Part shown: in pieces, positions 4,173 to 54,052 of the stretch | Layout of the letters: each line of letters starts with the position of its first letter | How positions within the stretch are numbered: the first letter of the stretch is position 1 | Origin: a virus | Taxonomy: Duplodnaviria; Caudoviricetes | Length of the DNA stretch: 64,000 nt | Direction: 5' to 3' (one strand) | Virus record (IMG/VR): IMGVR_UViG_3300042542_006078 | Made by a program: the position numbers and the translations under genes | The notes under the pieces: model-generated | The model's database searches: none | Told to the model about the DNA's origin: nothing | What the model saw: only the letters and a program-made list of their open reading frames with translations

Positions 4173-4247
4173 GCAAAAAATCTATCTTTGCTTGTGAATA
4201 ATTCTCTCCACATTCCTAAATAATTAGAAATGTGGAGAGATTTTTTT

Positions 4248-26328: not shown

Positions 26329-28638
26329 TTAATTTCTAGCCCATCTATCCGACTTTCCACTATAATAATCTATTTTGCCCTTTCTTCTTGAACCAAAATT
26401 AAACTTCCCAGCAATATCCTCAACATCTCTTCCCTTTTCAACCCTTATCTTTAGATTGACTATATCTTTTTTAAGATCGCTAATCATGTTCGACAATATT
26501 GGCAATTTTTCCAAGAAATTTTCTTTCTCTTTTTCGCTAAGATTTTTTTCTTTACTTAGAACATTATAAACATTTTTTAATTTGATCAATTCATTTACAA
26601 TATTTTTCACCTTATCAGATAAAACATTGACTCCCAACTCTCCTGATCTGTTGAAATTATCACGCATCTTTTCAATCAACTTTTCAAGCAAATCAAAATT
26701 TTTAATCTCTGACCTAGCAAAAGAAGTATGTGTTATGACATCAGACAAAATCATATTATAATCAGCACCAGCATCGAGAAGCTTTTCAATATATTTAATT
26801 TTTAAGGAATGACTTAAACCATTAGTGCTTAAAATACTTTCTCCCATTTCGCTCAAATGAATGCCACTCATAAGAGAATGACGAGAATCAGTATCATTCT
26901 TATCAGATTCAATTTGTTTTATCTCATGATCTAAAATATGATCGGCAATTTCCTCTTTACCCATATGCAAAGATTTTACCAATAAATTTATATTATTGGT
27001 ACGAGCATTTTGCCAATTTTCATTATTTGAATAATCTTTGTCGTAATAATCTTCTCCAGAAAAATCAAATTCCCTGTCTTTCATTCCTTTAGGACGACCA
27101 TACTTGCCTCCAGAATCGAAATGCTTCTTGAAGCTATCATCATCGCCTTTATCCAAACTTATGACCATTTTGGCGTGAGGATGTAATTTTTCTATATCTG
27201 AATTTTCCAAAGATGATAATTCATTTCCGGCAATATCAATACCAGCATGACTGTTTTGAATTATAACTGACTTATAAAGATTAAAATCTTTTTCTCTCAA
27301 AATTTCTCTTTCATCTACACACAAAGGAACAATATAACCTTTGCGACCAAGAGTAGCATTGATTTTTTTAGACATTCTTTTCCATAATTCATCAACCAAT
27401 TCTTTATCCCCATTGTCAAGCAAAGTCCTCATTAAAAAGCCTTCTCCAATTTTTCCATAAACTCCCATTTGAGTAATATTATCGGCAAATTTAGAAATAA
27501 CTTTTTTTCTCTCATCCCTCATGTTCTTGCTAATGAATTCAAATTCTTCTTCATTTATCGGGTAGGCATGAACATTGGCATCCACAGAAATTAAACGAAA
27601 ATGCATATACTTTTTGCCCAAATCCTTGTCAGACAAAATATAATTTAACTGAGAACCAGTCATATTCAAGCCAGTAGAAACATATTGTTCCAACAAATCC
27701 CTTAACTTGTGCTTAACCAAGAAATCAAACTGCTCATCACTTAACTTGTGGCCACGACCTATGTAAGAACTCTTTTGAGCAGGATTTAATCTTATAAACC
27801 AATCATAAGAAAGATTCTCATTTCCCAAAAGTTCATTTTCTTGCTTCTCTAAATCATTGTGAGGATTGTTCTTGAATATCGAAGTGTCAATTCCTTTGCT
27901 TCTCAGATAAATAAAGTATTTTGTGTGATCCACATCTCTTAAATCGGAATTTTCAGGATTTTGACAACTTCCTGTCCTGTTAATCCTATCAGTCAATAAA
28001 ATCTTGCCATAACTACCAACATCAACTACCACAATATCCAAATTATCATTCCTATTGGAATCAAAAACGAAATAAAATGTCGCAGCATGAGAATCACGAT
28101 ATGACTTAAACATTTTGTTTCCCGGCTGAGAAATACAAAATGTCGTTCCACGACCCAATATTATCGCATCAGCAACATTTTCAGCCTTGAAAACTTTAAT
28201 ACTATTATCACTATTCGCAAAAACAGGACGCAAACGGGAAATATCCTCGTCACTAGGACGATAACGGGAAGCAGATCTGCTCCTCTCCTCTTCCTCCATT
28301 CCATGCATCGCTGCTGTCCATTCCAAATAATTGGAATATTGCCTAAACTGAGTATTCAAATTTCCACTATCATCAAATGTAAACAACTTCATCTTGTTCC
28401 TGCCAACAAGACGATGATAAACATCAATGTCATTGCCCAATGTTCTTAAATCAGGCTGACTTTTACTAAAATAAGCAGCAACCAACAAATACTTGTTCTT
28501 CTCTTCAGGTTTGATCCCATCTGGCAATATCTCACCTAACTTAATCAAAAAATTAGTATCACCACCAACCAAATTCAACGCAATCTCAGAAGGCTTCTTA
28601 GCCTCATTAAAATAAAACCATTCACTAAAGTTTAACAT
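26329..28638 (-). CDS. Large protein with capsid-targeting-like leader; paralog of 28741 gene
   Basis: MLNFSEWFYFNE; shared domain IKVFKAE...FCISQPGN...FYFVFD...YIGRGH; degenerate helical C-terminus. Confidence 0.75.
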   Translation of the reverse strand: MLNFSEWFYFNEAKKPSEIALNLVGGDTNFLIKLGEILPDGIKPEEKNKYLLVAAYFSKSQPDLRTLGNDIDVYHRLVGRNKMKLFTFDDSGNLNTQFRQYSNYLEWTAAMHGMEEEERSRSASRYRPSDEDISRLRPVFANSDNSIKVFKAENVADAIILGRGTTFCISQPGNKMFKSYRDSHAATFYFVFDSNRNDNLDIVVVDVGSYGKILLTDRINRTGSCQNPENSDLRDVDHTKYFIYLRSKGIDTSIFKNNPHNDLEKQENELLGNENLSYDWFIRLNPAQKSSYIGRGHKLSDEQFDFLVKHKLRDLLEQYVSTGLNMTGSQLNYILSDKDLGKKYMHFRLISVDANVHAYPINEEEFEFISKNMRDERKKVISKFADNITQMGVYGKIGEGFLMRTLLDNGDKELVDELWKRMSKKINATLGRKGYIVPLCVDEREILREKDFNLYKSVIIQNSHAGIDIAGNELSSLENSDIEKLHPHAKMVISLDKGDDDSFKKHFDSGGKYGRPKGMKDREFDFSGEDYYDKDYSNNENWQNARTNNINLLVKSLHMGKEEIADHILDHEIKQIESDKNDTDSRHSLMSGIHLSEMGESILSTNGLSHSLKIKYIEKLLDAGADYNMILSDVITHTSFARSEIKNFDLLEKLIEKMRDNFNRSGELGVNVLSDKVKNIVNELIKLKNVYNVLSKEKNLSEKEKENFLEKLPILSNMISDLKKDIVNLKIRVEKGRDVEDIAGKFNFGSRRKGKIDYYSGKSDRWARN

Positions 28639-28740
28639 GAATTATTTAGAGAATATCAACGAAATTTATTCTCTTTCCTTGACTATTTCAAATAGTCAAC
28701 AACATCATCACCAATTTGTGCTTATTCATAAAATACATCT

Positions 28741-30408
28741 CTAACTATAAGAATATTCACTACTTCTTCTCGCTTGCAAATAATCAACTATATCCTTATG
28801 ACCATTTTGTTCTGCACCAGCAATTGCATAATTATAATTACTTATTTCTGCGCCTTTGAATAAAAGATATTTAACAAGATTCAAATTACCAGCCGATGCT
28901 GCATTAGCAACTGCGTTTTTACCTATTTCTATTGGAAATTTATTTATTTCTTCGGCTTTATCAATAAGATCTTTAACAAAATCTAAATCACCAGTTGCCG
29001 ATGCAGAAGAAATTAATTTTTCGCTAATTGGGACACCTTTTTTTACAAGATATCTAACAAGATCAAAATTTTTATCTCTTGTTGCTACAAGGACTGCGTC
29101 ATGGCTAACTGGGGCACCTTTTTCTACAAGATATCTAACAATATCAAAATTTTTATCTTTTCCCGACCTCACTGTTTGCCATATTGCTACAAGGACTGCG
29201 TTTTCGCTAATTTTAGCACCACTTTCTACAAAATGCTTAACAGTATCAAAATCATTAAATTCAATTGCCATGTTTATTTTGTTATAATCTTCACTATCAT
29301 TTATTTTCTCATAATAGCTTTCTTTCTGTTTAGAACTCAATAAATAATATTCTTTAGCAGTTAAATTTCTACTATTCTGATCAGAAATTAATCTATTATG
29401 AATATAATTGTCCTTCAAATCACGAATTTTTGCTATTTTATCAATTTGATAATCATCTAATGGCAACCCAGTTTTAACATATTGAGTCAGCAGAGAATTA
29501 AACTTGTTATCCAATAAAAAATCAAATTGCTGATTAGTCAATGGATGCCCTCTTCCAATATATTTTGACTTATAATCAGGAGACAAAGAAATAAACCAAT
29601 TCAAATCACCTTTAGCTTCTCCTAATTTTTCATCTTCTTCTTTTTCTTCTGGCGACTTGGGAATATTTACAATTTTTGATAAATCAATACCCTTCTCCTT
29701 AAGATATTTCATATAAGACTTAGGATCAGTAGTCAATTCTCCAGTATATGGATCTAATGTTTTGCCAGTCGTATTGACCTTGTCTGTGAGAACAGTTTTA
29801 TATTGTGTTTGATCAACAACCACAATACCCAATCTGTCATCCCTCGTATCATCATACACAAAATAAAAGGTGCTAGTCTGATTGTCACGATAACTTTGCC
29901 ACATTCTGTTTCCGGGTTGACTTATGCAAAAACTCTGACCTTTTCCAAGTATAATACATTGTTCTGTATTGTTAGCTTTATAAACCCTTATCTTGCCACC
30001 TGAGCCAGTCAAAATTGGCTTCTCATTCTGGAAATCAATATCGCTAGGCTTAAAATTAGATTTTTCCTTATTTGATTCTTCTCCTTTATTTCCATGAATA
30101 ATCTGAGTCCAATAAAGATAATTATCCCAAGGACTAGGTGGTTTTTTAGAAACTAAATCCACAGATATCATTTTCATCTTGTCTCTGTTCAAATAACCAA
30201 TATAATCCTTTATATCGATTTTAATTTGATTCAAATCTTTAGTTTTACTGTAATAATATGCTGCTAGCAATAATAACTTATCTGCATTTTTATTGTTTTG
30301 TGGAATAACTGTGGATAAAGCATTCAAAACAGCACCAGCCAACTCTGATGCCAAAGCCTTCTCTTCTTTGGTTTCATTTATCAATAACCATTCACGAAAG
30401 TTTAACAT
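28741..30408 (-). CDS. Ankyrin-repeat protein with capsid-targeting-like leader
   Basis: MLNFREWLLINE; repeats FDTVKHFVESGA, FDIVRYLVEKGA, AASAGNLNLVKYLLFKGA, AEQNGHKDIVDYL. Confidence 0.82.
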   Translation of the reverse strand: MLNFREWLLINETKEEKALASELAGAVLNALSTVIPQNNKNADKLLLLAAYYYSKTKDLNQIKIDIKDYIGYLNRDKMKMISVDLVSKKPPSPWDNYLYWTQIIHGNKGEESNKEKSNFKPSDIDFQNEKPILTGSGGKIRVYKANNTEQCIILGKGQSFCISQPGNRMWQSYRDNQTSTFYFVYDDTRDDRLGIVVVDQTQYKTVLTDKVNTTGKTLDPYTGELTTDPKSYMKYLKEKGIDLSKIVNIPKSPEEKEEDEKLGEAKGDLNWFISLSPDYKSKYIGRGHPLTNQQFDFLLDNKFNSLLTQYVKTGLPLDDYQIDKIAKIRDLKDNYIHNRLISDQNSRNLTAKEYYLLSSKQKESYYEKINDSEDYNKINMAIEFNDFDTVKHFVESGAKISENAVLVAIWQTVRSGKDKNFDIVRYLVEKGAPVSHDAVLVATRDKNFDLVRYLVKKGVPISEKLISSASATGDLDFVKDLIDKAEEINKFPIEIGKNAVANAASAGNLNLVKYLLFKGAEISNYNYAIAGAEQNGHKDIVDYLQARRSSEYSYS

Positions 30409-30497
30409 GAATTATTTAGAGAATATCAACGAAAATTTATTGTCTTTTTTTAACTGATTTCAAATAATCAAAAATATCATTACATAATTTTTATCAA

Positions 30498-31292
30498 TCA
30501 AGACTCAATCCAATCCTGTCCATTATGAACTAAAATTTTAGTCACAGGTAAAGAACTTTCTCCTGTGTACTTCAAAGCCATAGGATTCTTTCCATAATTA
30601 TTCTGGAAAAACCAAGATTCTAACTTTTTATGCAATTCTGGATTACGATCCTGATGAGCATAATAAAAAGGAGCTATATTAGATGCTGCTCCTGCACTGT
30701 AATAAGGGTTATCATTCAACAAAGGATCACGAACACTTCCGATTCTACCGGGAAATTTACCATACAAATTTCTGTATTCAGGATTCTTCTTGATAGTCGA
30801 AAATGGAACTGGCTCGGCATCAATACCAGTCAACTTTTCTCCAACTTCATCCTTTGACAAATATTTTTTTGTCTTGTCTGTTAAATTAACATCTCCCAAC
30901 TTGTTCAGCTTTCCAACTCTTTTAGAAGCATAAGTAAGAATGTCTTTCGCATGATTCTCAATGTCCAAATCCCATTCACCAAAATCAATATTTGGAACAT
31001 CTATTACAACAACTATAGGATTACCCTCTAAAGAACCCTTCAAACCATACAATTCTCTTTTCATACGAGCCAAAGCATGAGTTTTTGCGCTTTCATCCGA
31101 TGTCCAAAGAAACAAACCACCTCCCTGACCATGACCATATCCCGAAGACCTAGCACCATCCCTCTTAAATGAATTCAATACCTCATCGTCCTTTCCAGAA
31201 CTAGTTCCATGATAAAACCTGAAAGGACCACTAATAACAAAATCATCAGAATAAACCTCATCATGTCGAAGCCAATCTTTGAAATATATCAT
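30498..31292 (-). CDS. ADP-ribosyltransferase-like protein (H-Y-E clade type N-terminal motifs)
   Basis: FYHGTS, then GQGGGLFLWTSDESAKTHA; leader MIYFKDWLRHDE. Confidence 0.5.
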   Translation of the reverse strand: MIYFKDWLRHDEVYSDDFVISGPFRFYHGTSSGKDDEVLNSFKRDGARSSGYGHGQGGGLFLWTSDESAKTHALARMKRELYGLKGSLEGNPIVVVIDVPNIDFGEWDLDIENHAKDILTYASKRVGKLNKLGDVNLTDKTKKYLSKDEVGEKLTGIDAEPVPFSTIKKNPEYRNLYGKFPGRIGSVRDPLLNDNPYYSAGAASNIAPFYYAHQDRNPELHKKLESWFFQNNYGKNPMALKYTGESSLPVTKILVHNGQDWIES

Positions 31293-31308
31293 AAATTATT
31301 AATCCCAT

Positions 31309-32052
31309 TTATCTATAAATCCACTCACTCTGACGCATATATCCCGGCATTCCTAATCCACGCATCCCAGCTTCCCAATCTCCACGACTACTAACCTTCA
31401 CTCCACCCAATCCTAACTTCTCCATAGCAGCCTTCTTCTCAACTGGATTCATCAAATGTAACCTCTGACGCAATTCCAATTTCTCACGATCAGAATCACT
31501 CATAGCCACACCAACATTTCCACCCATTACCTTACTTATATGTACCGTTCCCAACAAAGGCGTACTTACAAAAACATCCTTACCTACAAAATATTCTTCC
31601 ATAGACCTCAAACAATCTACCAAATTGCGTGAATATACAGATTTCTCATCATTCCAAAAACTCACTAACAAAAACTTAACCTTCATATTATCATCTTTTT
31701 TCCTACTATCAAGAAATATAGACCAATTTCCCATCCTTCCCATTAAATCATGCTTAATTCCCTTTACCCTGTAATCATAACTACTATCATATCCCAAACT
31801 GTCCCGCCTATCCTGCAACTCATCCCTCATATCAATCAAATCTACATGATTCCTAAAATTAATATTGTCAACATCACTAGTATACAACTTACCACCAGAT
31901 ACCACTTCCTTACCCAAATATATAAATAGACGCTTAATCTGATTAGAACCTAAACCAAATATGTCATCAGGTATGTCATCAGGACTCATATAAGGCCCCT
32001 CTAAATCAACATCAAATGACTCCACATAACTCAACCATTCCCTAAAACTCAT
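31309..32052 (-). CDS. Hypothetical protein with capsid-targeting-like leader
   Basis: MSFREWLSYVES after SD GGAG. Confidence 0.7.
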   Translation of the reverse strand: MSFREWLSYVESFDVDLEGPYMSPDDIPDDIFGLGSNQIKRLFIYLGKEVVSGGKLYTSDVDNINFRNHVDLIDMRDELQDRRDSLGYDSSYDYRVKGIKHDLMGRMGNWSIFLDSRKKDDNMKVKFLLVSFWNDEKSVYSRNLVDCLRSMEEYFVGKDVFVSTPLLGTVHISKVMGGNVGVAMSDSDREKLELRQRLHLMNPVEKKAAMEKLGLGGVKVSSRGDWEAGMRGLGMPGYMRQSEWIYR

Positions 32053-32064
32053 AAATAACTCCAC

Positions 32065-32133
32065 TCACTCTGATGCCAAATCCTTCTCTTGTTTGCTTTC
32101 ATTAAAATAAAACCATTCACGAAAGTTTAACAT
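32065..32133 (-). pseudogene. 22-codon remnant of the 26329/28741 gene family (MLNFREWFYFNESKQEKDLASE*)
   Basis: Same upstream GATATTCTCTAAATAATTC-ATG as both paralogs; translation matches their N-termini and then stops. Confidence 0.7.
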
Positions 32134-32203
32134 GAATTATTTAGAGAATATCTTAAAGATATTGCATTCGATAAATAGATTAAAATAAATAAAAAGGAAA
32201 ATT

Positions 32204-41900: not shown

Positions 41901-42353
41901 TTAGATTCCATGCTTGATAGGTTTAATTAGATAAACGACACCAGAATCATAATCTATAAAATCGACGACATCCATTTTATACTTATTCTTTAACCAAATA
42001 TCAAAAGAATTATAAAAGTCTACAATCGAATCATCATAATTTTTCAGCTTCTGAATGTGATCAAGAGGAATTTCAAGTTTAACTTTATGCAATTCCTCTG
42101 GTTCTGTGATATTCCACCTATCAACCAGATCAGTTTCATTTTGCCAAAATTCTTTTGCTTCTCTATCACTCAGAGGAATCCAATTTTTAGCATCATTAAC
42201 CAATGATGAGAAAAACTCATTGTCTGTTTTTTTATTCTCATTCAACCATTCCGCAAAAGAAAATTTATTTTCTTTAACACAATTTGGAACTGTTCTTCCA
42301 CCTTTCTTTTTCATGCCTACTTGCTTATAACCTCTCCAACAAGCCTCATTCAT
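41901..42353 (-). CDS. Phage protein with CWxGYxxxGxKxKGGRxVPNC motif
   Basis: EACWRGYKQVGMKKKGGRTVPNCVKE, a motif common in large T4-like phages; SD GAGG. Confidence 0.75.
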   Translation of the reverse strand: MNEACWRGYKQVGMKKKGGRTVPNCVKENKFSFAEWLNENKKTDNEFFSSLVNDAKNWIPLSDREAKEFWQNETDLVDRWNITEPEELHKVKLEIPLDHIQKLKNYDDSIVDFYNSFDIWLKNKYKMDVVDFIDYDSGVVYLIKPIKHGI

Positions 42354-42404
42354 GATTTTTCCTCACTGACATAAAATACTGGAATTTGTTCCTCTTATCA
42401 AAAA

Positions 42405-43604
42405 TCACGGTGCCCATTTATCATACTTCTCGTCTTTTTGTTGAACCCAATTACGATCATGACCATGCTGATTGATCCTATATGGCAATTCAAAACCAAA
42501 TATTATTTCCATAGGAGAAGAACTAGAATTGTAAATACTACCAGTGTTGTGTATATTAGAAAATAATTTCTTCTGTTCTTCAGGTAAATTTTTAGCCCAA
42601 TTATAATAATCTTCCTGAAAATCCAAATACTTCAACTTATATTTCTGAATATCATTAGCATCATCTACAATCTTATGAATATTATTTCTTATAAGTTCTA
42701 TCTTTTCTAAAACATTTTTATACTCTTCTTTCATGCTCTTAAGACGATTAAAAAATTTATCATTTTCCACAGATTTCTTCCACTCATCAAAATCCATAGT
42801 TGCTACTACATCACTTATTATAACAGAATCATATGACCTATAACCCCTTTCATCTGAACTCAAATATTCACCACCAGTATCGTGAACAGTCTTTTTAATC
42901 TGCTCAATAACTATATCGTCAATGGCTTCATATCCAGAAAAAGGATTATATAAATTAGGAATCTTCTTCACAAAACTTGTTCTGTATTTTATAGGATATA
43001 TCTCAAATTCATAAGAAATATACTTAGAAGGATTCTCTGGAGCCTTTTTGCCCGGAGGAACCATCACCTCGCCCGGATACTTAGGAATCTCAATTTCACC
43101 AGACCTAAGTTTGGCAATAGTATCTTCAAAAGATACAGAACTTTTCATGTTATTTACAGCATCTTTAACCAAAACATTAATTGATATCATACGACCTTTT
43201 TCTACCTTCTGCTCCTTACCTTTATAACGCAAAAATACAGCATTCTTTTCTACCCTATACTCAAAATCATGAGGAATCAAATTGTGCAAATCCACGCAAC
43301 CAGCGCAAACACCGGGATCAACTATTATAGCACCACTATTCTTATCGCTAGGCTTAGTGTCAAACTTGAAAATACATTCCTGAAAATGAAAAAAACAACA
43401 TCGACCTTCCTTACCTCTCTCAGGAAATGCTATTTTATGAACACCTTCAATTTCACCAATTATACCTCTTCTACCTTCACTCCAACTAACCTTTACCTTC
43501 TGCCCCCTCTGCAAATCATGCTCCAATAACTCCTCATATACTGACTCATTCAAAACACCAGCTAACTTCAAGATTTCATATTTTTCTTTCATGATATACT
43601 CCAT
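42405..43604 (-). CDS. Hypothetical protein with LAGVLNES-type leader
   Basis: 399 aa ORF. Confidence 0.7.
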   Translation of the reverse strand: MEYIMKEKYEILKLAGVLNESVYEELLEHDLQRGQKVKVSWSEGRRGIIGEIEGVHKIAFPERGKEGRCCFFHFQECIFKFDTKPSDKNSGAIIVDPGVCAGCVDLHNLIPHDFEYRVEKNAVFLRYKGKEQKVEKGRMISINVLVKDAVNNMKSSVSFEDTIAKLRSGEIEIPKYPGEVMVPPGKKAPENPSKYISYEFEIYPIKYRTSFVKKIPNLYNPFSGYEAIDDIVIEQIKKTVHDTGGEYLSSDERGYRSYDSVIISDVVATMDFDEWKKSVENDKFFNRLKSMKEEYKNVLEKIELIRNNIHKIVDDANDIQKYKLKYLDFQEDYYNWAKNLPEEQKKLFSNIHNTGSIYNSSSSPMEIIFGFELPYRINQHGHDRNWVQQKDEKYDKWAP

Positions 43605-43935: not shown

Positions 43936-43986
43936 ACCGTAAAACCATAAAAAACATTTTTATACACAAAAATAACTAAATAATTC

Positions 43987-44793
43987 ATGAATAATTTCAA
44001 GTATTGGCTAAACATACAAGAAGGACTAGCTCTAAAAGGAGGATTCAAAGGAAGCTGGTTCCAAAGACTAGTAGCAGCAATGTATGTACTAGCACCAGAA
44101 TCAGAACAAGAAGCAGTCCAACTCTACATAGCACCAAATGGACTAACAAACGCAATCAATCACCAATTCAACCAACTACAAACCAAATACACCCACCACC
44201 TAAGCAAATCCGACCCATTCAAAAGCAGCAAAGAACTCGCCAAACATATAGATGACCAAAAAAAAGCAGGAATCAAAAAACCATCTGTACCTTCATATGA
44301 CGCAGAACTAGGTCCAAATATCACACAAGACCAAAAAGGGCACCCAGTCTGGAATAAAGACCAAGACCAAAAATTCGGATGGGTACACGACCTCTTAACT
44401 CACTATGCCGGTAAATTACCATTCGATGCCCGTGGAGAAGCAAAAGCTTACCTCAAACACCTAAAAACACTACCACCTCATTTAGCACCAATACTATTCA
44501 CAGAAATTATCGCCCAAACATCATACTACTACATCTATGGAGACTTCCCTAAACAAAAAGTAACTATACTCAAAGACTTCGATCACATCAATGTCGGAAA
44601 ACTTAACCCACAATCAAAACTAAATCAATTCTTTGAATTCAAAAACAAAGAACTTATACCCAAAAAAAATATAAAATTAGAAGAACTAAAATCAGTAAAC
44701 CCACTACTACCAACTATACTCAAAAACCAAGAATCAAGATGGCATAACAACGACAAACCTAAACACAAACTCGATACACTAAACCAAAATTAA
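43987..44793 (+). CDS. Hypothetical protein with capsid-targeting-like leader; possible metal-binding VHD..H...GE...H..E domain
   Basis: MNNFKYWLNIQEG after CTAAATAATTC; WVHDLLTHY...RGEAKAYLKH...TEIIAQ. Confidence 0.7.
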   Translation: MNNFKYWLNIQEGLALKGGFKGSWFQRLVAAMYVLAPESEQEAVQLYIAPNGLTNAINHQFNQLQTKYTHHLSKSDPFKSSKELAKHIDDQKKAGIKKPSVPSYDAELGPNITQDQKGHPVWNKDQDQKFGWVHDLLTHYAGKLPFDARGEAKAYLKHLKTLPPHLAPILFTEIIAQTSYYYIYGDFPKQKVTILKDFDHINVGKLNPQSKLNQFFEFKNKELIPKKNIKLEELKSVNPLLPTILKNQESRWHNNDKPKHKLDTLNQN

Positions 44794-45222
44794 TTACTTC
44801 CCAAATGAAGAAAATTTAATCAATATCAAACCACTAAACATCATCAATATACCAACCAATCCAAACCTATCAAACTTAATCCCAAATACCAATATAGGCA
44901 AAAAATAATATACCAATACCAATGTAAAATCATAAATCATGCTAAAACAATATATCTCACTCTCATCAAAAGAAGATGAAGAAGATATAATCCTAACACC
45001 AATAAACCAAAGATAACTACATATACCACCCAATAATACACCTAAAGGAATATACCACCATAAAATATGAAAATCCTTCCTGTAACTAATAAAACATGAT
45101 AAACAATTAAAAAGAAAAGCAAAAAAAAGAATCAAATATTGCATAAAATAATACCCAAAAATAAATCCGCCCACAATAAATGTGAACGGATTTATTAACA
45201 CAACTAAACTAAAATCAATCAT
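44794..45222 (-). CDS. Four-helix membrane protein (SMR/DMT-like)
   Basis: Four hydrophobic segments ending GLVGILMMFSGLILIK. Confidence 0.6.
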   Translation of the reverse strand: MIDFSLVVLINPFTFIVGGFIFGYYFMQYLILFFAFLFNCLSCFISYRKDFHILWWYIPLGVLLGGICSYLWFIGVRIISSSSSFDESEIYCFSMIYDFTLVLVYYFLPILVFGIKFDRFGLVGILMMFSGLILIKFSSFGK

Positions 45223-45541
45223 CCAAAGAAAAGTAAGCCCACTGAGGCTGATATATTAACTCAACTGCATTCAAAGATATCACCACAGATGAACCAATAA
45301 CATCCTCACTATTAGGACGCTCACTATTCGACGCACCACTACTCTCAACTGCCCTAGCCTGCGCCAAAATTAAACAATCATCTGTAACCTTAGACAATAT
45401 ACCACGATAATTAAACCTAGCACACAATACAGCTAAAGGCTGACCCAAATAATCCTTCAAAATACTAGCCATATTCTCACCAGTAGATAACTCAGGAGAA
45501 ATACGACTAAATGACCTCTTAACAGACATTTCAAACTCCAT
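45215..45541 (-). CDS. Small beta-barrel (Sm/SH3-like) protein
   Basis: YRGILSKVTDDCLIL...VISLNAVELI. Confidence 0.6.
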   Translation of the reverse strand: MEFEMSVKRSFSRISPELSTGENMASILKDYLGQPLAVLCARFNYRGILSKVTDDCLILAQARAVESSGASNSERPNSEDVIGSSVVISLNAVELIYQPQWAYFSLDD

Positions 45542-45552
45542 TCTATAAAAAA

Positions 45553-45879
45553 TTAATCAACCACAATCCTCGACTCAGATTCCAAATAATTATATTCCCT
45601 CTGACGAGATACACATATCCACTCACCACAAGGCAATGTCACTACATTATGCTCGTCATGACCAACAGTAATCTCTCTATCATTACTCCTCACATATATG
45701 TCACCATTACTGTCAACATAAGATTCCATCTCCGAAATAGATGGACTCATAATACGATGACTATGACCAGTAACCTCACCATATGCAAGAATATTATCAG
45801 ACTTCCTCTTCATCCCCTCAACAAAAGGAACACTAACTACCCTAAAGAAAATATCACCCTGCCTAGCCTGAAATGCCAT
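45553..45879 (-). CDS. Conserved protein of the RQGD...LAxGExTGHxH family
   Basis: ARQGDIFF...LAYGEVTGHSH...HDEH...RQREY; usually paired with the next gene's family. Confidence 0.75.
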   Translation of the reverse strand: MAFQARQGDIFFRVVSVPFVEGMKRKSDNILAYGEVTGHSHRIMSPSISEMESYVDSNGDIYVRSNDREITVGHDEHNVVTLPCGEWICVSRQREYNYLESESRIVVD

Positions 45880-45890
45880 AAATAAACCCC

Positions 45891-46493
45891 CTATGTCTCC
45901 TGAACAGGATTATAATCATCAGAAGACATTCCAAATGTCCAAGAAACTGCCTCCTTACAACTACTCATCGTAGGAGGTACACACAAATAGTAATTCTTGA
46001 AACTACCATCTGACTCAGGTGTACTGTTAATCACCTTCAAAAATAAAACAGGACCAGAAAAAATCCCAGATACACTAAACAACTCCATACCACTCAAATT
46101 ACATCTATCCAACAAAACACTACCACTACTAGAAACTATCCTCTCATGGCCTATTATCTTCACGCCAACATAACGACACTCAGAATTAGGATGACCCAAT
46201 ACATCCCCAACACTCAATAAATCAGGATCACTCACTGCACGATGAAAATTCGCAGGTATCCTTATACCCTCATAGTAATAAAATATACTACCATGGATAT
46301 CAGCATCTATACCATGCTTCTTCCCATCCTTATACCAAATCACCCTAGTCTTACTTCTCCAAGCAGGACTATCATCAGAATGCAAATTACCCAAATCATT
46401 CACCAAACGAACAATACCACCAGATGTAAATGGAAACTCCTTGGACATATAGTCCAATCTAGCTCTCCATGCAGAATATCCAGTGTTTTTCAT
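45891..46493 (-). CDS. DUF6745-like protein (start 46493)
   Basis: C-terminal LKVINSTPESDGSFKNYYLCVPP...EAVSWTFG; the ORF-track extension overlaps the next gene. Confidence 0.65.
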   Translation of the reverse strand: MKNTGYSAWRARLDYMSKEFPFTSGGIVRLVNDLGNLHSDDSPAWRSKTRVIWYKDGKKHGIDADIHGSIFYYYEGIRIPANFHRAVSDPDLLSVGDVLGHPNSECRYVGVKIIGHERIVSSSGSVLLDRCNLSGMELFSVSGIFSGPVLFLKVINSTPESDGSFKNYYLCVPPTMSSCKEAVSWTFGMSSDDYNPVQET

Positions 46494-46560
46494 CACAATT
46501 ACCCCAACCCACAAACCATTAACCAAAAACAAAATACCACAACAAACCAAATAAGTAAAA

Positions 46561-47043
46561 TCAAACCTTCTGAGCCCCAACAGATTTTTTCTGCAAATAC
46601 TCAATAGCAATCTTATTCGCAAATCCCTTCAAGCTATCAGGTGTAACAGACTTAGGATTAGAAGATATCTGCTGTATCCTACCCTGAACCAATCCCATAA
46701 TCTCATTCTTCGCAACAGGACTCAATATCCCAGTCTTATCATCCCACAATGAATCATCTATATCAAAAATTTCCGAATTAGGAACACTACCACGAGAAGA
46801 ATCAGGAATAGACATAGCCTGCTTTATCAAATTACCAGCATCCTGACGACTCTTTATCAAACTAAAAATCTGACCAGCTAAACCAGCAGCCTGAATAATC
46901 GAATCTATTCCCATTAAACCACTAACAGCACCAACAGCAGTCTGACCAACAGCCCTCGCTACCTGACCAGCAGTTCCTATGTTAGATTGCTGCGCTATAT
47001 TAGCCTCCCTCATAAAAACATAATCGTAAAAAGAAAGATTCAT
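46561..47043 (-). CDS. Hypothetical protein with leader and Gly/Ala-rich hydrophobic segment
   Basis: LSFYDYVFMREA then GTAGQVARAVGQTAVGAVSGLMG. Confidence 0.65.
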   Translation of the reverse strand: MNLSFYDYVFMREANIAQQSNIGTAGQVARAVGQTAVGAVSGLMGIDSIIQAAGLAGQIFSLIKSRQDAGNLIKQAMSIPDSSRGSVPNSEIFDIDDSLWDDKTGILSPVAKNEIMGLVQGRIQQISSNPKSVTPDSLKGFANKIAIEYLQKKSVGAQKV

Positions 47044-47049
47044 AAAATA

Positions 47050-48560
47050 CCCCCATAACCAAAATTAAAAACAACAAAATATCTATAAAACCAATATTAA
47101 CAATAATCCAAAATAACAAGATATTACCATATCATCAAAACCACAACAAACCAAATCCATATCATCAAAACACAAAACACAACAAATTTCACCAGTAGAG
47201 TACTCTACAACCATTCACATTCACAATTTATCACATTAACATTCACAATTTATTCACAATTTCATAAACCACAATTTCATAAATCACAATTCATCCACAA
47301 TTCCATATCTCACAATTCATCCACAATTAATCATATACATAAAATAAATTCTTTACAAAAAGACACATAGAAGACAATTATTCGCAAAAACGACCCAAAC
47401 ACCAAATAAAAATAATTGTGAGCTAAAAAGGCCAAAATAAGGCCTCTAAAACCCAAATCAATAAACAAACATTAATCCCAATCATAAAAACAAAACAAAT
47501 AATCAAATCTGTTCACAATAAGATCAAATCAATAAACACAAAACTTCTATCACAAAAAAAACTAATTAAGAACCAAAATTTCACACAAATACAAAAAATC
47601 AATCACAACAAAAAACACAAAAACTAAAAATCAATAAGAAATAAAAATCAAATTAAATAATAAACCAATAATCGTAAATTGTGATCAAATATAAAAGAAC
47701 ACAAAAAACATAAAGATATTCATCAATATCACATAAATCAATCACAATTTACATCAATTTACATCAAAGAATAATCAACAATTAAACAACCTTATAAAAA
47801 CAATAATCAACAAATATAAAATTCACAATTTACATGATAATAGGACTTTCACAAAAAAACCTTAAATCATAGATTGTATGCAGCAATTCATTTTTTTATA
47901 ATCCAATTTTATTCTTTTGGTGAGAAAGTAAGAGAAAAAATTGTAATTTTGTGAAGGTTATAAGTTGTTTCTGTGAAAGGCGTGAATTGTATTTTGATGG
48001 GTTTGATTGGAAAATAGGTCAAAAATGGGCCTAGCCGCCGCCCCATTTTTTTACCATTTTACATAGTTTTTTTATGATTAAGGATATTATTTGATGATTA
48101 ATTTGATGTAAAATCCACTTAAAAAGTAGATTTTTGATTTATTTTATGATTTTCTTTTTGTTTTTTTGGATAAATGATCAAATATTGAGTTAATTCTTAA
48201 AAAAATGTAAAATAAATCATAAAGAAATGAAAAAAGGCGATGATTATTGTATTTTTTGTTTATTTTTGGTCAAATTGTTGATAAAACTGTGATTTTCTTG
48301 GTGATTTTGTTGATTATGTGATTATAATTGCAAAAAATATGTGTTTAGAAGGAGATTGGAGTTGTGTTTTGTAATTTGTTGGTTATTTCTTTGTGATTTC
48401 TTTGTGATTTTGAGGTTAAAACACAAAAAAACCTTTATTTTATGATTAATTTGTTTAAGATTAATTTGTTTTATTTTAAGATTAGATTAATCTTAAAGAA
48501 ATGGTTGATTTTGTGATGTAATCTGGTTTACGCACTTGTACTTTGCTTGAATACTTGTAC
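47050..48560. other. Candidate replication origin / non-coding control region
   Basis: About 1.5 kb without ORFs, very AT-rich; A/C-rich left of about 47870 and G/T-rich right of it; clustered CACAAT(T) on the left and TTGTGA on the right. Confidence 0.55.
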
Positions 48561-48645
48561 TTTTTGTTCAATTGATTTTTTACGCACTTGTACTCTGGGT
48601 TGTTTTTCTTGTTTTCCATGTATATGAGGTTGGGAAATGTCAAAG

Positions 48646-48680
48646 AAACTGCTTCGGAGACGGAAGAAGCAAAGCCGATA
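48646..48680 (+). promoter_or_regulatory. 35-bp motif copy 4
   Basis: AAACTGCTTCGGAGACGGAAGAAGCAAAGCCGATA, 40 nt before ATG 48721. Confidence 0.75.
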
Positions 48681-48720
48681 TATGGTTGTTGGCAAGGAGT
48701 GGTGAAAAGGAGTGTGAGAG

Positions 48721-49050
48721 ATGCGATTCCAGACAGAACTTTTCAGTTTTGATGGTATGAGTCTTTACTACGACAACAAGTTTGTCGCCAGATTCAAGTA
48801 TATGAAGAGTAATATGTCAGGATTTCGTAGTTTTCTGATGAAGAACTTCGATGTTGATGAGTATTTTGCCAGATTGGCAGATCATTGTGGTGGAAAAGGC
48901 AAAGAATCGCCTTTGGAAATTCTTGAGAGCAAGGGTTTTGTTCTCAATCACATCAAGAAATGGTTGAAGAGGGATGGTTACCAGCCTAATTCAGAAGGAT
49001 ATCGTCTCTGGAGAGAATATCAGAGGCAAAAAATTGCACAAAGTCGATAA
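48721..49050 (+). CDS. Hypothetical protein
   Basis: 109 aa; SD AAGGAG. Confidence 0.75.
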   Translation: MRFQTELFSFDGMSLYYDNKFVARFKYMKSNMSGFRSFLMKNFDVDEYFARLADHCGGKGKESPLEILESKGFVLNHIKKWLKRDGYQPNSEGYRLWREYQRQKIAQSR

Positions 49051-49058
49051 ATGGAAAG

Positions 49059-49093
49059 AAACTGCTTCGGATTCGGAAGAAGCAAAGCCGATA
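49059..49093 (+). promoter_or_regulatory. 35-bp motif copy 5
   Basis: AAACTGCTTCGGATTCGGAAGAAGCAAAGCCGATA. Confidence 0.75.
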
Positions 49094-49133
49094 TATGGGT
49101 GTTCGATATTTTAACAATGATCTGAAGTAGAAA

Positions 49134-49168
49134 AAACTGCTTCGGATTCGGAAGAAGCAAAGCCGATA
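49134..49168 (+). promoter_or_regulatory. 35-bp motif copy 6
   Basis: Identical to copy 5, 75 bp downstream. Confidence 0.75.
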
Positions 49169-49235
49169 TATGGGTGTGAAGACGATCACAACTTCGTGGT
49201 TGTCTTTTTTTTGGTTTTTCATGGAGGGTTTCGCA

Positions 49236-49547
49236 ATGGCTAATGTTGCTAAGAAGGTTTCTAAGAAGGTTGCCAAGGTTGGTCGTCCTAAGAAGTTTAC
49301 TTCTGAACAGGTTCGTCTTTTCAAGTCTGTTGTTCGTGAGTTTGGTCTTACTGGAGCTATTCCGGTACTTCTAGAGAAGGGTCTGAGCGTTTCAGCACCG
49401 ACTCTGAGCAAGTACATCTCGACTGGAGCAGGAGGTCGTCCTCCTGTTCGATTGAAGAGGGGTCGTCCTCGTAAGGTCGAGACTAATCAGGTTGTTTCTT
49501 CTGTCGAAGAAGTAAAAGTTGAAGCAACTGTTGAAGCAGTTGCCTAA
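49236..49547 (+). CDS. Small basic DNA-binding protein with AT-hook-like motifs
   Basis: KVGRPKK, GGRPP, KRGRPRK; SD GGAGG. Confidence 0.7.
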   Translation: MANVAKKVSKKVAKVGRPKKFTSEQVRLFKSVVREFGLTGAIPVLLEKGLSVSAPTLSKYISTGAGGRPPVRLKRGRPRKVETNQVVSSVEEVKVEATVEAVA

Positions 49548-49576
49548 TTTTTAACGATAACCCAAAGGAGTATGAC

Positions 49577-49783
49577 ATGCCTAAGAAGAAACTGGTTCGT
49601 CGGGAGTTTTACATTCAGGAAACTGGTCAGGGTTACGATGTGATGGTAGTGGTTCTTGGTGTTGATGGTTATGAGTATTGTCATGGGCAATTCTTCTGCA
49701 AGAAATATGCAGAAGATATCTTGAGTGATCTCAATGAGGCCGAGACTCGTAAGCAGGAAGCTGCTTACGAACTTAACGGTTGA
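49577..49783 (+). CDS. Hypothetical protein
   Basis: 68 aa; SD AAGGAG. Confidence 0.7.
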   Translation: MPKKKLVRREFYIQETGQGYDVMVVVLGVDGYEYCHGQFFCKKYAEDILSDLNEAETRKQEAAYELNG

Positions 49784-49797
49784 TTATTTAGGATTCA

Positions 49798-49866
49798 AGG
49801 GTGGCATAGTTAACTCTATGCCACCCTTTTTCATGCGATTTTTTACCAAAAGGAGTGTGTGATATG
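49798..49866 (+). repeat. Hairpin+RBS cassette repeat copy 1
   Basis: AGGGTGGCATAG-TTAACT-CTATGCCACCCT TTTTCATGCGATTTTTTACCAAAAGGAGTGTGTGATATG. Confidence 0.9.
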
Positions 49867-50118
49867 AGTCGTAACGAAATGTTTTGCAGGCTTGACGAAG
49901 CGGTTATCACCGATGACGGGGATTTCATCCCTAAAAGAACGCCAGTACGGGTTTTGTATTGGAGTACAGAAGCAGAAGGATTGATTCGGGTCGAACCTAC
50001 AGCCCATATGTATTCTGACTCTTGTGATGATGAATTTCATTCATTTATTGGAACTGGACTGTTAATCGATGTCAAGCCTAGTGCCTTAACTTTTAGTTCT
50101 TGTGACAAAGGAGAATGA
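49864..50118 (+). CDS. Hypothetical protein, paralog of 50494 gene
   Basis: NEMFCRL...TPVRVLYWS...FIGTG.LIDVKP.ALTFSS shared. Confidence 0.78.
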   Translation: MSRNEMFCRLDEAVITDDGDFIPKRTPVRVLYWSTEAEGLIRVEPTAHMYSDSCDDEFHSFIGTGLLIDVKPSALTFSSCDKGE

Positions 50119-50119
50119 T

Positions 50120-50401
50120 ATGGCAAAGTATGAAGTGATCTTTGAAGAGATTCTGCATCATAAGGTAGAGGTGGAAGGAAATAGCCTAAAAGAGGCGAAG
50201 GAGAAAGCGTGCGAAATTGTAATGTACGGTCCTGAGACCGATTATGATACAGAAAGCTTAGGGACACAATTAATTTCGGCTGAAGGCGAAGACGGTGAAG
50301 ACGGTGAAGACGGTGAAGACGGTGAAGACGGTGAAGACGGCCAAGGTGAAGACGGCCAAGGTGAAGGCGAAGACGGTGCCGATGAAGACGGTGCCGATTA
50401 A
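50120..50401 (+). CDS. DpnD/PcfM-like small protein with acidic EDG-repeat tail
   Basis: YEVIFEEILHHKVEVEGNSLKEAKEKA; 9-bp GAAGACGGT repeats. Confidence 0.7.
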   Translation: MAKYEVIFEEILHHKVEVEGNSLKEAKEKACEIVMYGPETDYDTESLGTQLISAEGEDGEDGEDGEDGEDGEDGQGEDGQGEGEDGADEDGAD

Positions 50402-50428
50402 TTCAGTATTAGTAAACTAACAATTTTA

Positions 50429-50496
50429 AGGGTGGCATAGAGTTAACTCTATGCCACCCTTTTTCATGCGATTAACCCAAAGGAGTGTGTGATATG
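50429..50496 (+). repeat. Hairpin+RBS cassette repeat copy 2 (contains a 34-bp perfect palindrome, 50428-50461)
   Basis: AAGGGTGGCATAGAGTT-AACTCTATGCCACCCTT. Confidence 0.9.
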
Positions 50497-50757
50497 GCAA
50501 AGGATAACGAAATGTTTTGCAGGCTTAAATGGACACATGTGACCGAAGATGGCGATTACATCCCTCAGGGCACACCAGTACGGGTTTTGTATTGGAGTCC
50601 AGACACGGACTCAGGATTGCTGCGGGTCGAAGCTACAGCCTATATGTATTGTGAATGTGATGATAATGATGATTTTCGATCATTTATTGGAACTGGAATG
50701 CTGATTGATGTTAAGCCTAATGCCTTAACTTTTAGTTCTTTTCACAAAGGAGAATGA
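50494..50757 (+). CDS. Hypothetical protein, paralog of 49864 gene
   Basis: As above. Confidence 0.78.
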   Translation: MAKDNEMFCRLKWTHVTEDGDYIPQGTPVRVLYWSPDTDSGLLRVEATAYMYCECDDNDDFRSFIGTGMLIDVKPNALTFSSFHKGE

Positions 50758-50758
50758 T

Positions 50759-51106
50759 ATGATCGAGATTAAGAACATTAATCATAATCATGAACTATTG
50801 AATGTTGCCGAGGAAATTATTGACAACAATTTCACATCTTGTAACTGTGGCGATGAGTGCAATGGCACTTGTACGCATAGCAAGTTGATGCTGGCCATAG
50901 CTAATGCCAAGAGGGACAAGAAACAAAATAAAGCTTCCTTAGAGGAAAGGGTTGAAGCGTTAGAGAAATTATACTTCTTGGTATCAGAGCCTACAGAGGC
51001 AAGGGTTGAAGCGATAGAGAAATATATCGTCGAAAAAACTGAGTCTATTTGTAAATTTGGTATGTTAGAACACTCTAAAATTAGCCGGTTGTTCGGTAGT
51101 AAATGA
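50759..51106 (+). CDS. Hypothetical protein with CNCGDEC...C.H motif
   Basis: SD AAGGAG; Cys cluster. Confidence 0.7.
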   Translation: MIEIKNINHNHELLNVAEEIIDNNFTSCNCGDECNGTCTHSKLMLAIANAKRDKKQNKASLEERVEALEKLYFLVSEPTEARVEAIEKYIVEKTESICKFGMLEHSKISRLFGSK

Positions 51107-51155
51107 AAAATAACCAAAAGTATTGTGTGAATGTGTAACAATTCCGAATTAGAAA

Positions 51156-51190
51156 AAACTTCTTCGGAATCCAGAGAAGCAAAGCCGATA
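51156..51190 (+). promoter_or_regulatory. 35-bp motif copy 7
   Basis: AAACTTCTTCGGAATCCAGAGAAGCAAAGCCGATA. Confidence 0.7.
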
Positions 51191-51258
51191 GTATGGTGTG
51201 GAGACAATCACAACTTCGTGGTTGTCTTGTGTTGCAGAAGGGTAGAAGGAGTAATGAT

Positions 51259-51528
51259 ATGGCACACACAGAAGAAGATCATTTGTTTGCTCTTTCCGGC
51301 GAATTCGCCGTTTCAAGCCACTTGAAACCAATTTTTGCGGGACGAAAAAACACCATTATTGGTTTTGAACTGCCAGATGGTCGTAAAGTTAAACTCATAG
51401 TTGGTTTAGAACTGGAAAATGAAGTCAATGGTGATTATGATCACATTACTTCAGCGAAAGGAATGCAGGACTTGGGTTTTGGTTTGATTGATTACCATAT
51501 GAGTTCTTTTGAGCCAAAAGGAGTATGA
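51259..51528 (+). CDS. Hypothetical protein
   Basis: SD AAGGAG before ATG 51259. Confidence 0.7.
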   Translation: MAHTEEDHLFALSGEFAVSSHLKPIFAGRKNTIIGFELPDGRKVKLIVGLELENEVNGDYDHITSAKGMQDLGFGLIDYHMSSFEPKGV

Positions 51529-52843: not shown

Positions 52844-54052
52844 ATGGAACAGCCTCATTTTATATTTTTTGGGGAAGGCGATTCTCTGAGAAGAAAAGCG
52901 CCAACTGAGGAAGAGAAGTTGGTTCTTGTAGACAGGAAAGCCAAAGAGAGTCCTTTTCACAAGTTTGTTGGAAACGACAAGGCAGTGAAGAAGTTGCAGG
53001 TTGCGGCCTATCATGCTTTGGGTCACCCTAATCACATGATGAGGGATTTGAGCTTTAGCATATTTGGGCCAGCAAGTGCAGGAAAGACGACTTTGGCAAG
53101 GATCTATGGTGAAGCAGTAAGGCTCCCATTCATCGAAATAAGTCCAAAGGGTGTTAAGGCCCTTGATGATGTATTCGACTTTATAGACGGTGTTTTAAGC
53201 CGTGCAGGTATTGGATTGGTTGATTTAGATGAAGGCAAGCATGTTTTGCCTCCCTGTGTTTTGTTCTTTGACGAGGTCCATGCTTTATCTGATGGAATCA
53301 TTCAAGGTTTGCTCAAGGCTACCGAGTTTGGCGATGCCATCATGCAGACAGAGAGCGGAAGGATTCTGGACACATATGCGGCAACATGGATGGTTGCCAC
53401 TACAGATGAGGGAAAGTTATTTGATGCATTTAGGACTAGGTTTAATCCAATTCATCTTCAATATCTTGGCAAGAAGGATGTTGCGAAGATTGTAGGAAAT
53501 AATCATCCTGATTTGTCTGAGGAAGTCTGCAACCTTGTTTCTCATTATAATCCAAGGGTTCCTAGGCAGGCATTACAATTTGCTAGGTACATGGAAATGT
53601 ATAGGAAAATGCATAATGACATGTCGTGGAAAGAAATAGCCAAGTCGGTGGCTAATGACGAAGGAATCAATGAATATGGATTCAATGAGAATCAGATGAA
53701 GGTTTTGAAGAACCTCGAGGGTGGCGCTCTCAGTAAAAAGAACTTGGCTACGATGATTGGAAGGAAGGAAGAGGAGCTTGAGAATTACATTATTCCAACA
53801 TTGATTGCAGAAACAGAAGATCAGAGTTCTCTGATTAAGAGCAGTACCAGAGGTTATATTCTTACTGATGAAGGAAGTCGTCTCTTAGTTGACATGAGGT
53901 TGTTTGACCAGTTAGCTCATGATCCGAATGGTCCTTCTGTCAACATTGATCCCAAGTATGTAATTGTGGAAGTACTTAAAAGACTTGGTAGTGAAGAACA
54001 AAAGAAATCATTCATGAAAAGTCTGATCAAAGAAATCGAATCTATGATTTGA
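52844..54052 (+). CDS. ruvB: RuvB-like AAA+ ATPase (Holliday junction branch migration family)
   Basis: GPASAGKTTLA, LFFDEVH, ATT, RTRF Arg finger, PRQA, C-terminal winged helix ending RGYILT. Confidence 0.7.
   Translation: MEQPHFIFFGEGDSLRRKAPTEEEKLVLVDRKAKESPFHKFVGNDKAVKKLQVAAYHALGHPNHMMRDLSFSIFGPASAGKTTLARIYGEAVRLPFIEISPKGVKALDDVFDFIDGVLSRAGIGLVDLDEGKHVLPPCVLFFDEVHALSDGIIQGLLKATEFGDAIMQTESGRILDTYAATWMVATTDEGKLFDAFRTRFNPIHLQYLGKKDVAKIVGNNHPDLSEEVCNLVSHYNPRVPRQALQFARYMEMYRKMHNDMSWKEIAKSVANDEGINEYGFNENQMKVLKNLEGGALSKKNLATMIGRKEEELENYIIPTLIAETEDQSSLIKSSTRGYILTDEGSRLLVDMRLFDQLAHDPNGPSVNIDPKYVIVEVLKRLGSEEQKKSFMKSLIKEIESMI

Follow-up and report, generated by a model that had tools for sequence, protein, structure and literature searches.

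A non-coding spacer at a local strand-composition flip in a Caudoviricetes genome is a candidate replication-start zone

We analysed a stretch of 64,000 nucleotides of a virus of the Caudoviricetes (Duplodnaviria; IMG/VR record IMGVR_UViG_3300042542_006078), hereafter the window, in which an AT-rich non-coding spacer at 47044-48645 marks a flip in the base composition of the two DNA strands. The flip belongs to an island of extreme strand asymmetry that extends into the silent sites of the neighbouring genes. The island is local and exceptional for the lineage, and is not the centre of two replichores. Tentatively, we favour reading the spacer as a local replication-start zone, as opposed to an oriC-like centre of two replichores; replication there would probably be RNA-primed, with late lagging-strand synthesis. 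The spacer comprises the following parts.

47044-48645, unstranded: non-coding AT-rich spacer, which separates a leftward gene block from a rightward block
47044-47835, plus strand: left arm, A/C-rich, with 3.5% G and a GC skew of -0.56 to -0.86
47836-47925, unstranded: switch zone of 90 bp, in which G and C are mixed (by eye, only here) and the skew changes sign
47926-48645, plus strand: right arm, G/T-rich, with 7.6% C and a GC skew of +0.2 to +0.7

The gap between the starts of the flanking genes (46561-47043 on the minus strand and 48721-49050 on the plus strand) runs from 47044 to 48720, and every other gap in the window is 435 bp or shorter. An earlier note on this DNA, made from its letters, had called this the longest non-coding stretch and had placed a switch from A/C-rich to G/T-rich composition near 47870; the computed values bear out both statements. 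The 1.6-kb spacer contains no open reading frame (ORF) of 60 codons or more. The left arm (counted over 47044-47870) consists of 53% A, 21% C, 22% T and 3.5% G, and the right arm of 45% T, 29% A, 18% G and 7.6% C. In 200-bp windows, the GC skew goes from -0.58 at 47700-47899 to +0.20 at 47800-47999, and the cumulative GC skew, computed for the window, has a local minimum at 47.9-48.0 kb. The GC content is only 19-20% at 47600-47800 and 48100-48300, thus AT-rich DNA of the unwinding type is present beside the repeats described below. When the 60-mers of the window are ranked by duplex stability, three of the lowest 12 fall in the spacer.

Two metagenome contigs from other samples (L012 and L013, 98.8-99% identical) are contiguous through the spacer, which is therefore not an assembly junction, an explanation that the earlier note had itself raised. 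The switch is also crossed by an IMG/VR contig of the same phage whose first base corresponds to window position 47547, within the spacer. Sequence identity between strains is the same in the spacer as in its flanks, with no sign of extra constraint, and the three strains provide too few clean single-nucleotide polymorphisms for a polarised mutation spectrum.

The strand bias of the spacer is also found in the surrounding genes. We counted bases at 4-fold degenerate sites on the coding strand and compared the counts by Fisher tests; GC4 and AT4 denote the GC and AT skew at these sites.

Coding strand: baseline of 17 plus-strand genes distant from the spacer, G172:C376 and A571:T950
44794-47043, minus strand: five leftward genes, coding-strand 4-fold sites G39:C5 and A48:T179
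43987-44793, plus strand: lone oppositely oriented gene, coding-strand 4-fold sites G1:C18 and A67:T15
48721-51528, plus strand: rightward genes with a weaker opposite shift, GC4 from about 0 to +0.4 and AT4 down to -0.59

The five minus-strand genes differ from the baseline at p = 5e-14, and the lone plus-strand gene at p = 2e-15 (A:T counts). When read on the plus strand, the minus genes and the plus gene alike have A far in excess of T and C far in excess of G. Given that the embedded plus gene is the mirror image of its minus neighbours, the pressure acts on the DNA strand. This agrees with the earlier note, which had found the gene 43987-44793 to be A/C-rich on the plus strand (GC skew -0.34, AT skew +0.41) and had concluded that the bias follows strand, not coding direction. 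The gene is considered real because it matches phrog_3170 (E 1.9e-11), and its N-terminus resembles capsid-targeting tags. The silent-site skew reaches 0.8-1.0 in genes of both orientations and is therefore not attributable to codon choice. The arms of the spacer match the extreme of the silent sites, on both sides of the terminator-like hairpins listed below, and the skew of the right arm includes about 600 bp upstream of the first known promoter copy. On the right, the shift of the genes at 49.2-51.5 kb is back at baseline by about 51.6 kb, and the genes at 52-64 kb are at baseline despite having the same promoter class; the effect therefore tracks distance from the spacer. Ordinary transcription-linked skew in this lineage is only 0.1-0.25, as measured in the rest of the window and in the 123-kb contig of a relative (helicase 47% identical), where a skew of about 0.1-0.17 follows the gene strand and no gap exceeds 650 bp.

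The polarity of the flip is of the origin type, as the G/T-rich strands are those with their 5' ends at the centre. As a general principle, lagging-strand templates and non-template strands both turn G/T-rich via deamination of single-stranded DNA (PMC10030826). The polarity thus fits the lagging-strand templates of outgoing forks and, equally, non-template strands. Three elements of the spacer may be involved in a start of this kind.

47874-47902, plus strand: candidate sigma70-type promoter, TTGTAT-17-TATAAT, with a perfect -10 box
48021-48052, both strands: GC hairpin, with an A-run before and a T-run after on both strands, bidirectional terminator-like
47425-47447, minus strand: terminator-like hairpin, a GGCC stem followed by a U-run (z = -4.0 versus shuffles)

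The GC hairpin is the one that the earlier note had described as a lone hairpin near 48022-48053. A transcript from the candidate promoter, with a predicted start near 47909, would be about 140 nt long and end at this hairpin. In the replication-start zone that we favour, the duplex would be opened time after time outwards from the spacer, which would act as a non-coding hub. The short central transcript, delimited by the candidate promoter at 47874-47902 and the terminators at 48021-48052 and 47425-47447, would prime synthesis or open the duplex. Leading strands would then extend outwards, farther to the left than to the right, and the displaced strands (minus on the left, plus on the right) would stay single-stranded until lagging-strand synthesis arrives. 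As cytosine and adenine deaminate on single-stranded DNA, the displaced strands would turn G/T-rich and C-poor regardless of gene direction, with the effect strongest beside the start point and accumulated over many generations. We tentatively infer replication, and not transcription, as the source of the single-strand exposure from the mirror-image plus gene, the distance effect, the continuity of the bias across the hairpins and a magnitude several-fold the usual one. A more specific version, which we consider rather unlikely, is that the island is the mutational footprint of a strand-displacement start resembling the mitochondrial D-loop, with leading strands running several kb ahead; if so, the exposed strands would have lost almost all of their silent-site C over evolutionary time.

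The left arm contains a short repeat, CACAATT, far more often than expected by chance. There are 10 direct copies in this arm (0.57 expected) and 2 inverted copies (0.00 expected), and neither number was reached in any of 500 dinucleotide shuffles.

47215-47330, plus strand: dense array of 8 exact CACAATT copies (47222-47328) and 2 CACATT variants, spaced by 11 or 15 bp
47414-47830, both orientations: dispersed copies, inverted AATTGTG at 47414 and 47677, direct CACAATT at 47743 and 47824

These counts substantiate the cluster of CACAAT(T) units at 47215-47330, with further copies to 47850, that had been noticed by eye. A variant copy, CACAATA, lies at 47514, and three dispersed copies have an 11-bp form, TCACAATTTAC, in common (direct at 47742 and 47823; inverted at 47674, where the plus strand reads GTAAATTGTGA). 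The array is made of nested duplications of 11, 15, 22 and 26 bp around the 7-bp core. One additional 11-bp array unit is present in L013, and a 10-bp unit at about 47750 is missing from L012; as copy number varies between strains, the repeats change by slippage. The 7-bp core and the 11- or 15-bp spacing differ from iterons, where at least three direct repeats of roughly 17-22 bp with helical spacing would be expected. Judging from the sequence, the CACAATT copies are candidate binding sites for a DNA-binding protein. The dense array may equally control the leftward operon, given that it is located 170-290 bp upstream of the first leftward gene and adjoins an operator-like palindrome. A pattern scan of viral contigs for CACAATT arrays returned more than 119 matches; the inspected ones proved to be tandem repeats with no relation to this array, in giant-virus-like and other contigs, and hence give no evidence for a CACAATT array family. 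A reading of TCATCCACA / TTATTCACA as DnaA boxes was rejected, as these are not enriched and the repeat is conserved in CACAATT and not in TTAT.

The arms mirror each other only at the level of 5-mers (TCACA, 15 versus 5.3 expected; TGTGA, 7 versus 2.5). In the right arm, 7 copies of TGTGA were reached in 4 of 500 shuffles, and GTGATT occurs 5 times versus 0.9 expected (0 of 500 shuffles). The complement of the motif that the earlier note had seen on the right arm thus exists in the form of TGTGA and GTGATT, but not as ATTGTG. The spacer and its right edge contain several other repeats.

47127-47171, plus strand: CCATATCATCAAAAC twice at a distance of 30 bp, flanked by the first leftward gene and the palindrome
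47195-47208, palindromic: perfect 14-bp palindrome GTAGAGTACTCTAC, whose core matches the operator-like family TAGARTAYTCTA
48096-48469, plus strand: GATTAATTTG three times, at 48096, 48444 and 48459
48289-48410, plus strand: right-arm-specific repeats, GTGATT five times, including two tandem copies of TTTCTTTGTGATTT
48527-48597, plus strand: CTTGTACT three times, two of them as TTTACGCACTTGTACT, immediately upstream of the first promoter of the right block
48646-48689, plus strand: first copy of a multi-copy promoter-like motif, core GCAAAGCCGATATA at 48669

The operator-like family TAGARTAYTCTA forms arrays at other loci of the genome, and only one 60-mer of the window forms a less stable duplex than the one at 48436-48495. 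A 10-mer, GATCAAATAT, which contains GATC, occurs once in each arm in the same orientation (47683-47692 and 48176-48185). All copies of the multi-copy promoter-like motif in the window are on the plus strand. If a second promoter candidate (minus strand, 47358-47330) is used, the leftward mRNA would carry the CACAATT array in its leader. Overall, promoter-like matches in the spacer are at chance frequency (18 versus 13.5 in shuffles, standard deviation 3.1), as is the T4-type late promoter TATAAATA, which was rejected for this reason. Elsewhere in the window, several genes of both orientations have a near-identical cassette, GATATTCTCTAAATAATTC or CTAAATAATTC, immediately before their ATG (28639-28660, 30409-30430, about 32133-32160, 43970-43986 and 4215-4229); it may be a late-type promoter that gives almost leaderless mRNAs.

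A structured non-coding RNA in the spacer was rejected: Rfam gave no match in the spacer at E up to 1, and the folds of the spacer RNA are no more stable than those of shuffled sequence (z = -0.78, -1.40 and +0.95). No A-tract phasing was found in the spacer. A junction of hairpin telomeres or inverted terminal repeats was also rejected, as the arms are not inverted repeats of each other (the best pair is 46 nt at 72%).

We searched 20 flanking proteins against Pfam and PHROG, with few Pfam and some PHROG matches. The nearest AAA+ protein (52844-54052) is RuvB-like. The small protein encoded by the second gene to the right of the spacer (49170-49547; its start is likely near 49236) combines a helix-turn-helix-like segment with two AT-hook cores (GRPKK and RGRPRK) and is, by its predicted sequence features, a candidate binder of the AT-rich arms. 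The genes 46561-47043 and 43987-44793 start with F-x-x-[FWY]...E motifs (MNLSFYDYVFMRE and MNNFKYWLNIQE) that are capsid-targeting-like. A minus-strand mini-ORF (MLNFREWFYFNESKQEKDLASE-stop, about 32065-32136) with a capsid-targeting-like start lies just before the gene 31309-32064, which has a capsid-targeting-like start of its own (MSFREWLSYVE); the mini-ORF looks like the remnant of a replaced gene head. Two pairs of tandem paralogues are present, 26329-28638 and 28741-30408 (43% over 351 amino acids) and 49855-50118 and 50485-50757 (66% over 91 amino acids).

Scans of viral, metagenome and genome contigs and of GenBank phages yielded fragments of the same phage of at most 40 kb or distant relatives, and no cultured relative was found in the GenBank phage collection. 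The DUF6745 gene adjoining the spacer has a 71%-identical homologue in one relative (L014), in which three homologous genes keep a milder G-rich silent-site bias. Both the spacer and the skew are missing from more distant relatives (L015, L016 and L001). At 1805-1830 of L014, a palindrome (TAGTCACA-AG-TGTGACTA) at a convergent gene junction contains the same TCACA/TGTGA 5-mers as the arms. The identity between strains (L012 and L013), otherwise 99-100%, falls to 51-88% at 42000-43500 and 50000-51000, which look like exchanged gene cassettes flanking the spacer. A 2.2-kb contig (L149, JAURHO010000259.1) that is 55% identical to the SNF2 helicase of the phage was binned in a metagenome-assembled genome of the Crocinitomicaceae (Flavobacteriales), a weak hint at the host group of the lineage.

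Several observations weigh against a replication start at the spacer or against a replichore-scale origin. The asymmetry is limited to about 39.2-51.5 kb, an island of ~12 kb (about 39.2-47.9 kb to the left and about 47.9-51.5 kb to the right), and across the roughly 84 kb examined the skew has decayed to about 0 by 4-9 kb to either side. The genes at 1-17 kb and 63-84 kb have no replichore signature, and strand bias does not persist at replichore scale, as the genes at 1-17 and 52-84 kb are at baseline; the remainder of the IMG/VR contig, at 63-84 kb, has mixed gene orientation and a skew of about +0.05. A strand bias shared by 17-26 kb was rejected against the 4-fold-site baseline (C over G on the coding strand). 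Minus genes to the left of the spacer are confined to 36.3-47 kb (~11 kb) and the plus strand carries most genes at 1-26 kb, so that genes are not co-oriented with fork movement on both sides. The divergence of gene orientation reported earlier therefore holds at the spacer, but gives way to mixed orientation beyond 36.3 kb leftward. Because the bias ends within ~12 kb and gene orientation is mixed, the spacer is no replichore centre. The profile on the left is also non-monotonic, with a weaker stretch at 40.3-43.6 kb, part of which is a cassette that differs between strains. Another divergent junction, which lacks an AT-rich spacer, has a second small island at 30498-32064; this island consists of two minus genes with coding-strand GC4 of +0.5 and +0.83 and capsid-targeting-like N-termini, and no paralogy between the two islands was found. 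Where the spacer would lie, L014 has a 200-bp divergent junction together with a tRNA and an acetyltransferase gene. Among the 20 flanking proteins, we found no initiator, primase or helicase and no Rep-, O- or RepA-like family. DnaA boxes (TTATNCACA, at most 1 mismatch) are not enriched in the window (100 versus 90 expected), with 6 matches in the spacer versus about 2.5 expected. ATTGTG is absent from the right arm (0 versus 1.07 expected), which speaks against inverted arms. The strand-following argument rests on a single oppositely oriented gene, and outward transcription predicts an identical polarity. The bidirectional origin with inverted iteron arms that the earlier note had proposed is thus not supported in that form, given the unmirrored CACAATT motif, its 7-bp core, the size of the island and the lack of an initiator gene among the flanking proteins searched.

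The spacer could instead be a purely transcriptional control hub, which we regard as somewhat unlikely; strong outward transcription would account for much of the pattern too. Strong outward promoters would drive C-to-T and A-to-G changes on the non-template strands with no origin function, leftward read-through would cross the embedded late-type gene 43987-44793 in antisense, and the CACAATT array and palindrome would be operator or activator sites, or an mRNA-leader motif, of the leftward operon. Change of the non-template strand driven by transcription has reportedly been proposed for T7. Skew flips at any point of divergent transcription and other intergenic skew follows the direction of the flanking genes; the island is roughly operon-sized, and the second island begins at another divergent junction. 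The L014 homologues retain elevated skew without a spacer, the terminator-like hairpins and sigma70-like candidates point to transcription units, and the different start cassette on the embedded plus gene (CTAAATAATTC-ATG) suggests a different expression class. The lack of a replication gene among the flanking proteins searched is in line with such a hub as well. However, the magnitude of the skew is 3-5 times that of the usual transcription-linked skew in this phage and a relative, and the right-block genes at baseline carry the same multi-copy promoter as the shifted ones. The skew does not change at the terminator-like hairpins or ahead of the first known promoter, and promoter-like matches in the spacer are at the level of shuffled sequence.

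Replication and transcription are not the only processes that could leave a repeat-rich spacer between diverging genes. Joined ends of phages whose early and late genes occupy opposite ends also form repeat-rich non-coding DNA with genes pointing away on both sides, and the centromere parC of plasmid R1 consists of arrays of 11-bp direct repeats, a likeness that counts for a partition site. The spacer might accordingly hold the genome ends, a pac packaging start or a partition site, with repeats bound by the terminase small subunit or by ParR/ParB-type proteins. Short-read assembly would fuse terminal repeats into continuous sequence, and one IMG/VR contig does begin inside the spacer, at 47547. 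We nevertheless judge this improbable: L012 and L013 are uninterrupted across the spacer, no terminase, ParA/ParM or ParB/ParR gene is among the flanking proteins searched, resection of double-strand ends would expose the opposite strands from those that are G/T-rich here, and the strand-following silent-site bias would be left unexplained. It is likewise improbable, in our view, that the spacer is decaying, functionless DNA that has lost its genes and drifted to the local neutral equilibrium, with repeats generated by replication slippage. The composition of the arms equals that of the silent sites of the neighbouring genes, the array consists of nested tandem duplications, two repeat units differ in copy number between strains, the 71% relative lacks the spacer, and strain identity is as in the flanks, all of which would suit decay. 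Tandem slippage, however, cannot give rise to the dispersed and inverted CACAATT copies, and the two inverted copies use 4 of the 29 G residues where 0.00 copies are expected. The terminator-like hairpins are well formed, the operator-like palindrome is common to other loci, and decay leaves the local mutation bias itself without a cause.

To our knowledge, the replication origins of huge phages are essentially unmapped and almost none of these phages has been cultured. The locus described here is a concrete, bounded origin candidate, with a 90-bp switch zone, a defined motif and two hairpins. If replication is the source of the bias, origins in uncultured viruses could be located from their silent-site footprints, and if the start is D-loop-like, its position, direction and reach could be read from silent-site composition in uncultured huge phages. 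If transcription is the source, this would be among the strongest transcription-linked composition effects known to us in a phage. Lake metagenomes and metatranscriptomes that already exist can separate the two.

Minima of GC skew have been used to place origins in bacterial and huge-phage genomes (PMC7111523). The spacer has such a cumulative minimum locally, at 47.9-48.0 kb, but the method requires a genome-wide V, and here the skew falls to about 0 within 4-9 kb. In iteron origins, the initiator binds direct repeats of 17-22 bp, as in the lambda ori with the O protein, P1 oriR with RepA and F ori2 with RepE. The spacer likewise has a cluster of direct repeats beside AT-rich DNA, with a repeat number that varies between strains. 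It differs in its 7-bp core set in units of 11, 15, 22 and 26 bp, in repeats restricted to one arm, in having no Rep or initiator gene found adjacent to it and in DnaA boxes that are not enriched.

Divergent early control regions, such as the PL/PR operators of lambda and the repeat-rich non-coding region beside the pre-early genes of T5, are similar in their divergent blocks, repeats, palindrome and terminators, and an AT-hook/helix-turn-helix gene is the second gene on the right of the spacer. No repressor-operator pair was identified at the spacer, unlike in these regions, and we do not know of extreme strand-following composition as a property of lambda- or T5-type control regions. T4 oriF and oriG and the primary origin of T7 combine a promoter with an AT-rich unwinding region, and in T4 the second fork is delayed. 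The spacer resembles them in its easily melted, AT-rich non-coding DNA, in its candidate promoter and candidate short, terminated central transcript, and in being a local origin candidate that would need no dedicated iteron-binding initiator nearby; delayed lagging-strand synthesis would explain the strand exposure. In contrast to the T4 and T7 origins, the spacer is far longer (1.6 kb), carries multi-copy motifs and is known from sequence alone, and we know of no skew island of such size at either of them.

The vertebrate mitochondrial control region directs strand-displacement replication and has a G/T-rich heavy strand. The pattern around the spacer differs from it in being two-sided and in extending over only about 12 kb, and a strand-displacement mode is here putative. 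Both have G/T-rich versus A/C-rich strands, with a silent-site skew of 0.8-1.0, and in both the bias does not depend on gene orientation and peaks close to the start point.

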